Positions 2-3,725 of a DNA stretch of 4,984 nucleotides are shown here, in pieces. Source of the stretch: a virus. Taxonomy: Duplodnaviria > Heunggongvirae > Uroviricota > Caudoviricetes. Made by a program: the position numbers and the translations under genes. The notes below the pieces were generated by a model. The model ran no database searches. It was given only the letters and a program-made list of their open reading frames with translations, and had not been told where the DNA came from. Every line of letters begins with the position of its first letter. The stretch's first letter is position 1. The stretch lies in IMG/VR virus record IMGVR_UViG_2711768073_000012; one strand, 5' to 3'.

Positions 2-1498
2 TTTGCTCATCCGGAAGAAATCGACACCATTGTGTCCCACACCCGCGATATTGCCATTCAGGAAGACCGCCACGAGCTGGGCAATGATATTACTCCGCGC
101 TTTAAGGTGGAGTATGTCGACGGCTCAAAAGGCACGCCAACCAGCTACATCGCCACCTACATCGGAAAGAACCTGGACAGCCGCGCCGTGGATGGCATCG
201 ACCCGAAAACGGGCAAGCCACGCGTTGACCACGAAACCGGAAAATCAATGGCCGAGAGCGTGGAACGCGCCATCGGCTGGGCACGCCTTCACCGGGTCCG
301 CCAGTTCCAGTTCTTTGGCATCCCCTCCCGTCAGGTATGGCGTGAACTCCGCCGCCTTGCCAGCCAGATGGCACGCAACCCGGAAGGCCCACAACGGCTG
401 AAGGATGATGCAATGGATGCGGTACTCGCTGCCGCTGATGCCGGGTGTTTTGCCACCTACATTGAGAAACAGGGCGGCGTACTTGTTCCACGCAAAGACT
501 ACCTGATTCGCACCGCCTACGACCTCGCAGATGAGCTGAACGATTACGGCGAACAGAGCGTACAGATTTACGGGATCTGGTCACCACTCATCGGGGAATC
601 CTCCCGTGTGTGCACGCACTCGGATAACTGGAAGCTGGTAAGACGTAAACCGGAAGCGGAAGACAGCACCCGCGAAAATGGTTTTGACCTTCAGGGCGGC
701 CCTGCCGCCCCTTGGACTCGTGGCAATAACTGTCCCCGTGTACAGGAAACGGACAACAACGGGACAGAACAGCCGGAAGAAAGGCCAGCACCGTGGCCGC
801 AGCTTCCTGACGGCGTTGACGTGAATGAATGGATGCGCTCACTGAAACGGCACGAACGCCGGGCGCTGATGCGTTCGCTGCGTGACAAACAGGCAAAAAA
901 CAGCAGTGATGAAATGCAGAACTGGACACAGAGCCGCAAACAGCCACGGCCTTTGCCTGATAACCACGAGTTACTCGCTAAAGAATGGCGGGAGTCTGCT
1001 GAATCTCTCGGCCTGCATATCGGTGAACAGCAGATGCAGCACCTGTTACGGGGCGGCAGTCTGTACGTTGACGGCAGCATCATTGCACCGCAGGGATTTG
1101 AAATTGTACGCAAACCAGATACCCGCCCGGACAGCCGAATCACGCAACTCTGGCAGCGCCTGAGCCGTAATCACGGCGTAAGCAGCACGGAGATCCGCCA
1201 TAACCCGGTCGCCAGCTATCTGGAACAGCTGGGGGCATCAGACCCCGAAGCCGCCGCACACCTGGCATCCACACTTCAGCAGGACCAGAACACCATGAAA
1301 ACCCCCGTTACCGTGCTTTCTGACATGCTGCGCGCCATCCGTGACGCAGTGCACGCACAGAGAATCAGTGAAACCACTGAACGCGCCCACCGCAAAGCAG
1401 ACCTGCTGCGGGGTAGCCTGACCAGTGGAAACAAAAAACAGACAGAAACGGGACTCACAAATCCCGTAAATGAGCAAAAAACGTGCCGCGATATATGA
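2..1498 (+). CDS. A: Replication initiation endonuclease, phage P2 gene A family (rolling-circle initiator), C-terminal part; 5' end lies outside the window
   Basis: Frame is open from nt 2 (FAHPEEIDTIV...) with no stop until TGA at 1496-1498. Contains the paired-tyrosine motif SYIATYIGKN (Y-x-x-x-Y followed by K), typical of the catalytic motif of rolling-circle initiators of the phiX174/P2 A type. Position is consistent with P2 gene order (A, then variable cargo, then cos, then Q). The other overlapping ORFs here are off-frame artefacts of GC-rich sequence. Confidence 0.8.
   Translation, partial: FAHPEEIDTIVSHTRDIAIQEDRHELGNDITPRFKVEYVDGSKGTPTSYIATYIGKNLDSRAVDGIDPKTGKPRVDHETGKSMAESVERAIGWARLHRVRQFQFFGIPSRQVWRELRRLASQMARNPEGPQRLKDDAMDAVLAAADAGCFATYIEKQGGVLVPRKDYLIRTAYDLADELNDYGEQSVQIYGIWSPLIGESSRVCTHSDNWKLVRRKPEAEDSTRENGFDLQGGPAAPWTRGNNCPRVQETDNNGTEQPEERPAPWPQLPDGVDVNEWMRSLKRHERRALMRSLRDKQAKNSSDEMQNWTQSRKQPRPLPDNHELLAKEWRESAESLGLHIGEQQMQHLLRGGSLYVDGSIIAPQGFEIVRKPDTRPDSRITQLWQRLSRNHGVSSTEIRHNPVASYLEQLGASDPEAAAHLASTLQQDQNTMKTPVTVLSDMLRAIRDAVHAQRISETTERAHRKADLLRGSLTSGNKKQTETGLTNPVNEQKTCRDI
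1448..1467. promoter_or_regulatory. Inverted repeat ACGGGA-(8 nt)-TCCCGT inside the 3' end of gene A; candidate protein-binding or ori-associated hairpin
   Basis: Seen directly: acgggactcacaaatcccgt, 6-bp arms. A related element recurs about 73 bp downstream (1521-1540). Function is inferred. Confidence 0.3.
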
Positions 1499-1520
1499 AG
1501 CGCGCACAAAACAGGCAAAA

Positions 1521-1540
1521 GCGGGATTTAAAAATCCTGT
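1521..1540. promoter_or_regulatory. Inverted repeat GGATT-(4-5 nt)-AATCC in the A/parM-like intergenic region; candidate operator or centromere-like (parC-type) site overlapping a possible promoter
   Basis: Seen directly: gcgggatttaaaaatcctgt. It resembles the 1448-1467 element (aaa-cggga...aatcc-gtaa in both). It is followed by an AT-rich stretch (ttaattaat) and a Shine-Dalgarno aggaa 7 nt before the ATG at 1575. The promoter call (-35-like tttaaa, -10-like taatta) is weak. Confidence 0.3.
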
Positions 1541-1574
1541 AACCGATTAATTAATCAACACAAGGAAAAGCGAC

Positions 1575-2537
1575 ATGAAAATTTGTATCGACGACGGCTC
1601 CACCAACATCAAGCTGGCATGGACTGAGAACGGCGAACGCCGCAACGCCATCAGCCCGAACAGCTTCAAGTCGGAATGGTCTGCGCCGTTCGGTGGCACG
1701 CAGCCCGCGAACTACATGCTTGATGGCGTGCGCTATGGTTTTGATCCGGTCAGCGATCGCTTTGTCCAGACGACCGACACGCAATACCAGTACAGCGATG
1801 TGAATATAATTGCCATTCATCACGCGCTGGTCAAATCAGGCATCACACCACAGGAAGTGGATGTGGTTGTCACCCTGCCACTGAGCGAGTATTTCGATAC
1901 AAACGCACAGCCGGACATGGCCAACATCAACCGCAAAAAAGCGAACGTCATGCGCCCGGTGGAGTACCAGAACGGCGAAGCATTCACTATCCGTAACGTA
2001 CGGGTTATGCCTGAATCCATTCCGGCTGGCTTTAAGGCACTGGCTGACATGAGTCCGTTTGAATCCCTGCTGATTGTGGATTTGGGCGGAACCACTCTGG
2101 ATGTGGCAAAGGTTCAGGGGCAACTGGCAGGTATCAGCCAGGTGTTTTGCGATCCACACGTGGGCGTTTCTCTGATGGCCGATGCCGTACTGTCGGTGAT
2201 GGCCACTAACGGTATGCGCACCAGTCACCACATCGCCAATACCATTATCGAACATCGCCATGATGAAGCCTGGTTGCGCCAGCACATCCACAATGACGCG
2301 CATTACGCCAGCCTGATGGCGGTTATTCGTGAAAAGGAAGAAACACTGAAACAACGAGTGATCCGCGCGCTGGCGGGGTTTTCGGGTTACGGGCGGGTGA
2401 TGGTTGTCGGTGGCGGGGCGGAGATTGTGGCACCCGCTATCCGCGAAGCCTGCGGAGTTAATGCGACTTTCATCGCAAAAATGATGAAGCCTGGCTGCGC
2501 CAGCACATCCACAATGACGCGCATTACGCCAGCCTGA
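1575..2537 (+). CDS. ParM/StbA-like actin-fold partition ATPase; the native C-terminus is replaced by 19 frameshifted codons because of a tandem duplication
   Basis: N-terminus MKICIDDGSTNIKLAW closely resembles the plasmid R1 ParM/StbA N-terminus (IDDGSTNIKL phosphate-1 motif). Also present: phosphate-2 motif LIVDLGGTTLDV and adenosine motif VMVVGGGAEIV. SD aggaa sits 7 nt upstream of the ATG. The last 19 residues (KMMKPGCASTSTMTRITPA) are copy 2 of the duplication read out of frame. Confidence 0.85.
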   Translation: MKICIDDGSTNIKLAWTENGERRNAISPNSFKSEWSAPFGGTQPANYMLDGVRYGFDPVSDRFVQTTDTQYQYSDVNIIAIHHALVKSGITPQEVDVVVTLPLSEYFDTNAQPDMANINRKKANVMRPVEYQNGEAFTIRNVRVMPESIPAGFKALADMSPFESLLIVDLGGTTLDVAKVQGQLAGISQVFCDPHVGVSLMADAVLSVMATNGMRTSHHIANTIIEHRHDEAWLRQHIHNDAHYASLMAVIREKEETLKQRVIRALAGFSGYGRVMVVGGGAEIVAPAIREACGVNATFIAKMMKPGCASTSTMTRITPA

Positions 2538-2697
2538 TGGCGGTTATTCGTGAAAAGGAAGAAACACTGAAACAACGCGTGATCCGCGCGCTGGCGGGTT
2601 TTTCGGGTTACGGGCGGGTGATGGTTGTCGGTGGAGGGGCGGAGATTGTGGCACCCGCTATCCGCGAAGCCTGCGGAGTTAATGCGACTTTCATCGC
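2260..2697. repeat. Imperfect direct tandem duplication: two 217-bp copies (2260-2476 and 2481-2697) separated by AAAA; period 221 bp, not a multiple of 3
   Basis: Aligned by eye. The copies differ at 4 positions (2274 t/2495 c; 2357 a/2578 c; 2378 g/2599 t; 2414 c/2635 a). All four are third-codon-position synonymous changes in the parM reading frame. CATCGC occurs at the left boundary (2253-2258) and at the end of each copy (2471-2476 and 2692-2697). Confidence 0.9.
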
Positions 2698-2755
2698 GGA
2701 CGGGGTGCCACAGTTTGCTCTGGTTAATGGGCTGTACGCAATGGACAAGGAGTAA
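2537..2755 (+). CDS. Displaced native C-terminal reading frame of the parM-like gene (72-aa ORF); likely a remnant of the duplication rather than an independent gene
   Basis: Translation MAVIREKEETLKQRVIRALAGFSGYGRVMVVGGGAEIVAPAIREACGVNATFIA is identical to residues about 248-301 of the upstream ORF. It then continues DGVPQFALVNGLYAMDKE, which resembles the ParM C-terminal end (..DLVNGMY..). Removing one repeat unit restores a single ~319-aa ParM-like ORF running 1575 to 2755. Confidence 0.45.
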   Translation: MAVIREKEETLKQRVIRALAGFSGYGRVMVVGGGAEIVAPAIREACGVNATFIADGVPQFALVNGLYAMDKE

Positions 2756-2759
2756 ACCA

Positions 2760-3071
2760 ATGACGACTCCAACCAGACGGATAAGTTTCTATCTGAAGCC
2801 CACCGCCGTCAAGAACGAAGGAGAAGCATGCGCCTGGCTGGACAGCCTTACACCAGAAGCCCGCAAAAGCGGCCAACGCGTGGCTTTTCTGGCCGGGCTG
2901 GCACTTCTGAAAATGAATCCGGCAGAGGCTTATCGACTGGCTGCATGGGCTGGTGATGAAGCGTTATCAGTGACACAAACCAGGACAGAACGCCCCGCAT
3001 CACAGCCAGTATCAACCGCACAGATAACCAGTCAGATGGCCGGAAATATCCGGGCGTTATTTCCTGAATAA
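2760..3071 (+). CDS. ParR/StbB-like partition adaptor (ribbon-helix-helix-type small DNA-binding protein), 103 aa
   Basis: ATG at 2760 is preceded by SD aaggag (2747-2752, 7-nt spacer) and starts 5 nt after the parM-frame stop. Translation MTTPTRRISFYLKP...LDSLTPEARKSGQRVAFLAGLALLK...IRALFPE resembles R1 StbB/ParR (RRTIAFKLNP...LDSIPQGERS...AALTAGLALY...LRSLFP). The 148-aa ORF in the track (from 2625) begins inside repeat copy 2 in a third frame, so 2760 is the preferred start. Confidence 0.7.
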   Translation: MTTPTRRISFYLKPTAVKNEGEACAWLDSLTPEARKSGQRVAFLAGLALLKMNPAEAYRLAAWAGDEALSVTQTRTERPASQPVSTAQITSQMAGNIRALFPE

Positions 3072-3134: not shown

Positions 3135-3725
3135 ATGAGCGAAATCAACTATCAGGCATTACGTGAACGTTATTCACCTGTGCCAGTACCGAAATGCCCT
3201 ATTTGCGGCGAGGAAATGTCAATTCAGCGAATATCTGGAGCACAGGTTGTTTATGCCTGCTCCGGTTATGGTGATGATGGAGATTTCAAAATTGGCCAAA
3301 CTCTTGCCGACGAACATTATGAAAAATCACGCGTAACAGTGTTGGATGTCGGGGATCCTGAAGTATTGGCGCTACTTGATTGGCTGGAAACCAAAGACAA
3401 CCGAATCGCTGAACTGGAAAAAATCGCCACTGACTATGCACTTAAATTCCAGAAAGCACAGGACGCATTAAAGTATGCCGCTTTGCTGCATAGCAGGACG
3501 GCGCAACAAACAAATAATTTTGCAGTATCGCTTCCGGACATAAGCGAATATTTCATTAATGACGTATTTCAGCCCTTGCGATACGAGCGGGATGTTGAAA
3601 GAGCCATCATAAAGGCTGGCGGAAAAGCATTGTGGCAGGAGAAACACGAGGACAGAACGCATCAGTCCTGCGATGTAAATCGTGGATGGTTTAGCCCACT
3701 GACGACAGATAAAAATAACACCTGA
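3135..3725 (+). CDS. Ead/Ea22-like family protein (prophage early-region protein of unknown function) with an N-terminal CPIC motif and a central coiled-coil-like segment
   Basis: ATG at 3135 with SD aaggag 9 nt upstream. N-terminus MSEINYQALRE and the segment PEVLALLDWLETKDNRIAELE resemble, from memory, the conserved N-terminus and ..VLALLDELEAAEKRIAELE.. segment of Ead/Ea22-like prophage proteins. Cysteines at residues 21, 24 and 42. Codon composition is visibly more AT-rich than the flanking genes. Confidence 0.5.
   Translation: MSEINYQALRERYSPVPVPKCPICGEEMSIQRISGAQVVYACSGYGDDGDFKIGQTLADEHYEKSRVTVLDVGDPEVLALLDWLETKDNRIAELEKIATDYALKFQKAQDALKYAALLHSRTAQQTNNFAVSLPDISEYFINDVFQPLRYERDVERAIIKAGGKALWQEKHEDRTHQSCDVNRGWFSPLTTDKNNT

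Follow-up and report, generated by a model that had tools for sequence, protein, structure and literature searches.

The parC site of plasmid R1, which serves a type II ParMRC system, is said to have been described by Dam and Gerdes in 1994. On plasmid pB171 the targets of ParR are arrays of 10-bp direct repeats, and the protein assembles into a continuous helical scaffold; ribbon-helix-helix (RHH) dimers such as Arc, CopG, omega of pSM19035 and ParG of TP228 can bind adjacent inverted subsites about one helical turn apart. In R1, parC is 159 bp long and consists of five 11-bp iterons, a 39-bp promoter core and five further 11-bp iterons (PMC2241845), with one ParR dimer to each iteron (Hoischen et al. 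2008, PMC2241845). Our subject is a site of a different design, lying between a phage replication gene (gene A) and a parM-like gene in 4,984 nucleotides of prophage DNA, IMG/VR virus record IMGVR_UViG_2711768073_000012, which we call the window. A sequence-only reading of the window had picked out two related hairpin elements there and proposed that they were either par operators or part of a replication origin. We think it probable that window positions 1432-1574 form a parC-type centromere and operator, bound by the cassette's own ParR, in an R1-family type II parC-parM-parR system. What persuades us, from comparison of sequences, is that the adjoining genes are a real ParM and a real ParR by their Pfam and structure matches; that both elements accompany parMR behind unrelated upstream genes; that the units are conserved far better than the DNA around and between them, with their spacing, and free of coding constraint; that the palindrome is local; that related loci also have repeat blocks upstream of parM; and that an invariant ParR N terminus, putatively the DNA-reading part, fits an invariant site.

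A two-unit site ahead of parM

The two-unit site is a variant architecture of a well-known kind of partition system. Like R1 parC, it is a cis site just upstream of parM in the order parC-parM-parR, it has two repeat blocks, and a promoter would be expected in or beside the blocks. It shares the position and the two-block plan of parC; iteron arrays are absent. Where R1 has two sets of five tandem iterons, the prophage site has two units of about 43 bp, 73 bp apart, each holding one 20-bp inverted repeat:

1432-1474, plus strand: repeat unit A, which marks the left boundary of the par module; A-rich leader CAAAAAACAGACAGAA, 20-bp inverted repeat, AAATGAG
1448-1467, no strand: inverted repeat of element 1, ACGGGACTCACAAATCCCGT (family consensus ACGGGATTCACAAATCCCGT)
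1505-1547, plus strand: repeat unit B, the leader CACAAAACAGGCAAAA followed by the 20-bp inverted repeat and AACCGAT
1521-1540, no strand: inverted repeat of element 2, GCGGGATTTAAAAATCCTGT (family consensus ACGGGATTTCAGAATCCCGT)
1545-1556, no strand: third, short perfect palindrome GATTAATTAATC (GATT-N4-AATC), with inner arms and spacer length as in elements 1 and 2; it overlaps a candidate -10 box

That the two elements resemble each other is borne out by a repeat search of the window, which pairs 1432-1469 with 1505-1542 as a 38-nt direct repeat of 79% identity at 73-bp spacing. Its gapless match at 30 of 38 positions was reached by none of 500 dinucleotide shuffles of 1380-1640, the best of which gave 26. 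The inverted repeat proposed for each element fares differently in the window and in its relatives. A pair of 8+4+8 palindromes with no more than two mismatches each turned up in 51 of 500 shuffles, and the window palindromes on their own are not significant, with one mismatch in element 1 and two in element 2. In relatives both elements are perfect 8+4+8 palindromes (family consensus ACGGGATT-N4-AATCCCGT), and the window alleles are therefore degenerate. Both sequences singled out by the earlier reading are present, with small corrections to their positions: AAACGGGACTCACAAATCCCGTAAA lies at 1446-1470 (given as 1447-1470) and AAAGCGGGATTTAAAAATCCTGTAA at 1518-1542 (given as 1518-1541), and the distance put at about 71 bp is 73 bp between the starts of the two inverted repeats. 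It was right that the first element lies inside the coding end of gene A, whose open reading frame (ORF) runs to 1498, and that both lie upstream of the parM start, an ATG at 1575. The CAAAA(A)AC(A)G-like motifs it listed are also real (CAAAAAACAG at 1432-1441, CAAAAAACG at 1475-1483 and CAAAACAG at 1507-1514); those at 1432 and 1507, of the form CAAAAAAC(A)G, are the left leaders of units A and B.

A spacing of 73 bp is about seven helical turns, so that the two units face the same side of the helix; within each palindrome, 16-20 bp long with the core GGGATT-N4-AATCCC, the GGGATT and AATCCC cores are 10 bp apart centre to centre, and the site ends 28-34 bp ahead of the parM ATG. The likeness of this core spacing to RHH operators is a geometric analogy only.

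The genes that flank the site, and the ribosome-binding site of parM, are these:

32-1498, plus strand: 3' part of gene A (replication, P2 GPA family), from the ORF list; Pfam Phage_GPA on the N-terminal part
1562-1566, plus strand: Shine-Dalgarno sequence AAGGA, 8 nt ahead of the parM ATG; invariant in an alignment that includes Hafnia
1575-2755, plus strand: parM (StbA / R1 ParM family), disrupted by a 221-bp internal tandem duplication
2760-3071, plus strand: parR, 103 aa, PF10784 (Pfam 3.1e-23)

The identity of the filament protein is clear from the intact 319-aa ParM of phage P88, which matches Pfam StbA_N at 1.8e-82, ParM_N at 1.3e-68 and the R1 ParM structure (PDB 1mwk) at 9e-93. The system resembles that of R1 in both proteins: the ParM, besides its match to the R1 structure, shares 47% identity with the ParM of an R1-like plasmid, and the putative RHH-type ParR belongs to the same Pfam family. 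Over residues 6-67 (the N-terminal 62 residues), P88-type ParR shares 32% identity with the ParR of L005, an R1-like locus, and its C terminus aligns with the C termini of plasmid ParRs. A profile built from it matches pB171 ParR at 3.4e-10. This protein of pB171 par1 (PDB 2JD3, entered as 'StbB protein') is the sole solved structure that the profile reached; its N-terminal DNA-binding part and its extreme C terminus align, and it has about 27 extra residues between the aligned ends. The prophage ParR is also shorter than that of L005 (103 against 116 aa), lacking the middle segment found in plasmid ParRs.

Comparison of 53 distinct prophage ParR sequences shows no variation in the N-terminal PTRRISFYLKP...QRxAFLAGLAL, a conserved NIxxxFPE at the C terminus, and between them a hypervariable linker (about residues 66-95). 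ParR alleles fall to about 50% overall identity beside ParMs that are 95-100% identical, and what is kept amid the linker divergence is the N-terminal 65 or so residues and the last eight. This pattern fits a protein whose head binds DNA and whose tail binds ParM, with a flexible linker joining the two.

Two or three repeat blocks lie upstream of parM in loci judged to be R1-like, in phage D6, and in plasmids of the IncF, IncI and IncL/M groups, the IncL/M blocks being likewise spaced by about 73 bp; for R1 such a plan has been described by experiment (PMC2241845). D6, a P1-like phage-plasmid, is the sole other phage in a collection of 50,697 records with this ParM family (47.8% identity). It differs in being an extrachromosomal plasmid prophage, and its repeats are three TCTCA-N6-TCTCA direct units and not GGGATT palindromes.

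Conservation of the site and its tie to parMR

The most distant relatives found are Hafnia prophages (L138-L140), which we compared with P88. Between the Hafnia and P88 (E. coli) copies of parM, dS is 0.65 and dN/dS 0.037, and ParM is therefore under strong purifying selection. At a dS of 0.65, neutral DNA is expected to be only about 57% identical by Jukes-Cantor arithmetic. Identities along the site, Hafnia against P88, run as follows:

gene A tail: 49%
leader of unit A: 80%
element 1: 75%
segment after element 1: 87%
middle 22 bp: 36%
leader of unit B: 94%
element 2: 85%

The units thus stay 75-94% identical against 49% for the gene A tail and 36% for the DNA between them. CGGGATT...AATCCC is invariant at the core; Hafnia does not keep the outermost A/T pair but has the same spacing. 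Across 118 loci the units are 73 bp apart in 112, 74 bp in three, 72 bp in two and 71 bp in one. The third palindrome is only partly kept in Hafnia, where it reads GATTAATAAAGC. Two other candidates were set aside from the same comparison. One was a functional G+C hairpin at the end of gene A, whose sequence is 36% identical between Hafnia and P88, its length being kept:

1483-1507, plus strand: G+C-rich hairpin-like stretch, a predicted 7-bp bulged stem whose loop contains TGA (1496-1498), the stop codon of gene A

The other was a set of CpxR-like GTAAA motifs after the palindromes, which are absent from Hafnia.

To which gene does the site belong? In the 35.8-kb P88 genome the palindrome is confined to this site. 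A pattern scan of IMG/VR for it returned at least 120 loci; among the matches listed, 115 are P88-type junctions of gene A and parM, and the other five (L050, L061, L121, L125 and L128), which have no par genes, were discarded as single unrelated occurrences. Two loci that place parMR behind different upstream genes decide the matter. In L056 the P2-type A protein is only 32% identical to that of the window and is followed by an extra 159-aa ORF, similarity to the window starts at about 1433, and the entire two-unit site is intergenic; in L076 the upstream genes are unrelated small ORFs and similarity starts at about 1443. Both starts lie just left of element 1. Both loci encode a 98% identical ParM, and in both the similarity runs across the two elements into parM.

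The reading frame of gene A across 1432-1498 is not conserved. Phage Chuche has one additional A, other loci lack one A or two nucleotides, and in Hafnia the gene A stop codon falls within element 1. Since the DNA is kept while the frame shifts, the constraint is on the DNA, and the module belongs to par. The last 22 or so codons of gene A (1432-1498) are read-through into the par module, and the overlap of unit A with gene A is incidental. In this respect the proposal that the elements belong with par has held up: they sit at the place expected of a parC/operator bound by ParR, move with parMR behind differing upstream genes and are conserved far above the neutral rate, as their flanks are not.

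Some loci have decayed. L124 (4075-4260) and L143 (1501-1720, on the chromosome of E. coli 2013C-3181) have mostly lost parM-parR and retain both elements, and in L030 (233-560) element 2 alone is left beside a truncated parM.

The question of the replication origin can be approached through phage P2, whose annotated rep_origin nick site lies at position 29892 of NC_001895, 427 bp before the end of gene A. The window gene A product is 32% identical to P2 A, spanning P2 A residues 405-687, and by protein and DNA alignments together the nick position falls at about 713/714 of the window, inside GCCGCCCCTTGGACTCGTGGCAATAACTGT:

700-735, plus strand: homolog of the P2 origin nick region, by alignment to P2 nick 29892

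Window 692-753 is the sole stretch that matches the more distant Klebsiella and Salmonella P2-like phages listed at DNA level (85-90%), and, as far as alignment can tell, it is likely the phage replication origin.

Mechanism and competing readings

If the site is the cassette's parC, both palindromes would be bound by ParR, a putative RHH adaptor, in the simplest case with a dimer of dimers seated on two major grooves in succession, and ParR might spread across the conserved leaders; the unit leaders may be ParR subsites. The ParR-DNA complex would then present the conserved C-terminal peptide (NIxxLFPE) to the ends of ParM filaments, which would push the DNA copies apart. The same binding could throttle parMR expression in one of two ways: through occlusion of a weak promoter overlapping unit B, or through a block to read-through out of the early operon that contains gene A. 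Such read-through is likely because there is no terminator before parM, which follows 76 nt on in the same strand: between gene A and parM no terminator-like site was found on the plus strand, the terminator-like matches being on the minus strand only. Two promoter candidates came from a relaxed scan:

1527-1555, plus strand: best sigma-70 candidate, weak; -35 TTTAAA (1527-1532), 17-nt spacer, -10 ATTAAT (1550-1555); 8 of 12 matches, without the -11 A
1471-1499, plus strand: alternative weak promoter candidate between the units; -35 TGAGCA (1471-1476), 17-nt spacer, -10 TATGAA (1494-1499); 7 of 12 matches

The Hafnia row at the position of the alternative promoter reads TGAACA/TATAAG, by eye and from the alignment only. 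The claim that the second element overlaps the promoter region is upheld in the sense that the best candidate, weak as it is, overlaps element 2.

Several results weigh against assigning the site to ParR as its centromere and operator. A standard scan found no promoter-like site in 1200-1800, and the best sigma-70 candidate, which overlaps the palindrome GATTAATTAATC as well as element 2, scores only 8 of 12, so that there is no convincing promoter. Only two strong sites are visible, against ten iterons in R1 parC. Autocorrelation at 10-11 bp gives z scores of at most 0.9 in the window and P88, against 2.7-4.9 in the parC regions of R1-like, IncF, IncL/M and IncI loci; the periodic signal in the window and P88 is the 73-bp block repeat (z 5.1-6.0). 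A-tract phasing in the window region is not significant (110 and 272 of 2000 shuffles). The iteron plan of R1 parC is thus not that of this site, and R1-style 11-bp iterons laid out by eye (CAAAAAACAGA, CAGAAACGGGA) were rejected as its organising principle for want of a 10-11-bp autocorrelation. With an invariant ParR N terminus and an invariant site, no covariation of protein and site can be demonstrated; a search for ParR homologs gave only the P88-type clade, and a genome scan with ParM gave only three near-identical loci. The AlphaFold (AF2) monomer of ParR is of low confidence (pLDDT 55.6).

For the window copy in particular there is a further objection. Its parM contains a 217-nt tandem duplication (2260-2476 and 2481-2697, 98% identical, 221-bp period), which shifts the frame, replaces the last 20 or so residues of ParM and splits the ORF into 1575-2537 and 2537-2755. 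The best-matching complete E. coli genomes, at 99.7% identity, do not have the duplication, their match spanning 1280 bp against a 1501-bp query. With parM broken in this way, the parMR system of the window copy is probably inactive.

What else might the elements be? The palindromes could serve as operators for some different regulator, of host or phage origin, that would control the expression of parMR, with ParR binding elsewhere, for example to the A-rich CAAAAAAC(A)G leaders. Symmetric 20-bp sites are typical of helix-turn-helix dimers, the leaders CAAAAAACAGA and CACAAAACAGG resemble iterons of the R1-like L005 such as CAAAAACAAGA, and the leaders are conserved as well as the palindromes are. 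Against this stand the confinement of the palindrome to the par site in P88, its travelling with parMR into other contexts, and the content of the mobile module, which encodes parM and parR only and no extra regulator gene; to our knowledge, the palindrome contains no motif of a known E. coli factor. We regard a separate regulator as unlikely. That the similarity is due to chance, or that the site is a decaying relic without function, might be argued from the imperfect palindromes of the window, matched as they are by one shuffle in ten (51 of 500), and from its disrupted parM. The direct repeat that no shuffle reproduced, the perfect sites in relatives, their conservation as far as the distant Hafnia prophage and the strong purifying selection on parM make chance or decay very improbable.

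Two alternatives remain. Low folding energy comes automatically with any DNA palindrome, and this explains the RNA fold z-scores (-3.7 and -3.9 against shuffled sequence) that would favour the elements as RNA hairpins in a polycistronic A-parM-parR transcript, with a part in processing, stability or translational coupling. The likely read-through into parM speaks for such hairpins too, as does element 2 of the window, which still pairs via G-U wobbles. Natural variants, though, give the neutral expectation, five kinds of transition keeping the pairing (as G-U) and five breaking it; in Hafnia the outer pairs are broken and the sequence core is kept; both hairpins retain the same sequence and not merely the same shape; and there is neither a relevant Rfam match at E values up to 1 nor a U-run after either plus-strand stem. 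We give an RNA role rather little chance. A role in phage replication, as part of the origin or as a lagging-strand priming signal tied to gene A, takes up the alternative offered by the sequence-only reading, and it is true that element 1 lies within the gene A ORF and that the P2 origin lies inside gene A. The P2 nick maps about 730 bp upstream of the elements, and it is 692-753, not 1440-1574, that is conserved in DNA sequence in the more distant P2-like phages listed, from which it follows that the hairpins are not the origin. Other P2-like A proteins cease to align at about window position 1076, and the elements accompany parMR behind unrelated genes. A replication role is hardly credible.

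If ParR does bind the two palindromes, as our preferred assignment to parC has it, R1-family segregation would not be restricted to tandem-iteron centromeres; a much smaller site would do, made of a pair of symmetric operators with seven helical turns between them and served by a shorter adaptor, and the system would be compact enough to suit structural work.

The P88-like carriers

The window is a P88-like (Xuanwuvirus, Peduoviridae, P2-like) prophage, 95-99% identical to Escherichia phage P88 and Xuanwuvirus phages over most of its length. The P88 genome has an integrase, the C repressor and Cox, and its gene A, parM and parR share a strand with the early genes. The sequence-only reading had taken parMR for cargo, which it is not. 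It follows gene A in all 14 closely matching phage records that cover the region (11 distinct phages) and is present at about 94% of the E. coli places with a P88-type gene A tail. Because parMR follows gene A in every covering record, and variable genes come only after parR, parMR is core to the P88-like genus and not hotspot cargo.

Of 5426 complete E. coli genomes, 1368 have the gene A tail and 1303 the par module, with a chromosomal location in nearly every case; carriers include O157 Sakai (Sp13) and O26 and O103 strains. This in itself is a puzzle: where R1 is a plasmid, some 1300 of the 5426 genomes contain an integrating prophage that retains the segregation machinery of a plasmid, with strong purifying selection acting on it. 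It is conceivable, though rather less likely than not, that P88-like prophages, present in about a quarter of complete E. coli genomes, carry an active and structurally distinct type II subclass, with a minimal 103-aa ParR and a centromere of two phased palindromes in place of iteron arrays. It would serve the phage genome as an extrachromosomal circle, whether prior to integration, following excision or in a carrier state, ensuring inheritance by both daughter cells, and would be silent once the phage is integrated. Literature searches that combined P88, Xuanwuvirus or Peduoviridae with ParM or StbA turned up no account of this site. For annotation, the last 22 or so codons of the 'replication endonuclease' should be seen as read-through into a cis site, with the phage origin about 730 bp further upstream, and parMR should not be counted as defence-hotspot cargo.

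One record bears on the state in which such phages are found. NZ_CP148288.1 (L142), entered as a 34.5-kb circular 'plasmid' from an isolate of E. coli, is a complete P88-like genome with integrase, Cox, A, parM and parR. It may represent a phage circle that has excised or is replicating, or else a genuine plasmid state. P88-like phages also have a gene of the hok/gef toxin family (NC_026014.1 34928-35068, L135; NZ_CP148288.1 1291-1431). Together with parMR, this gives them homologs of both classic stability loci of plasmid R1, parMRC and hok/sok.

Downstream of parR in the window come an Ead/Ea22-like ORF and, in opposite orientation, the portal gene. Between parR and cos/portal there is a slot (window 3135-3725, with equivalents in L001, L002, L007, L008 and L011) that holds different genes in different phages, Ead/Ea22-like in the window and ClpX-zinc-finger-like and others elsewhere, and behaves like the variable tin/old region of P2. 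Upstream, the P88-type A protein is 940 aa long against 761 aa in P2, and its C-terminal extension (window 1076-1498, about 140 codons) cannot be aligned with other P2-like A proteins. Residues 291-410 of the gene A fragment share 37% identity with a region of L076 (32-397) that overlaps a small, separate ORF, and it is this identity that suggests that the C-terminal extension of P88-type gene A arose by gene fusion.

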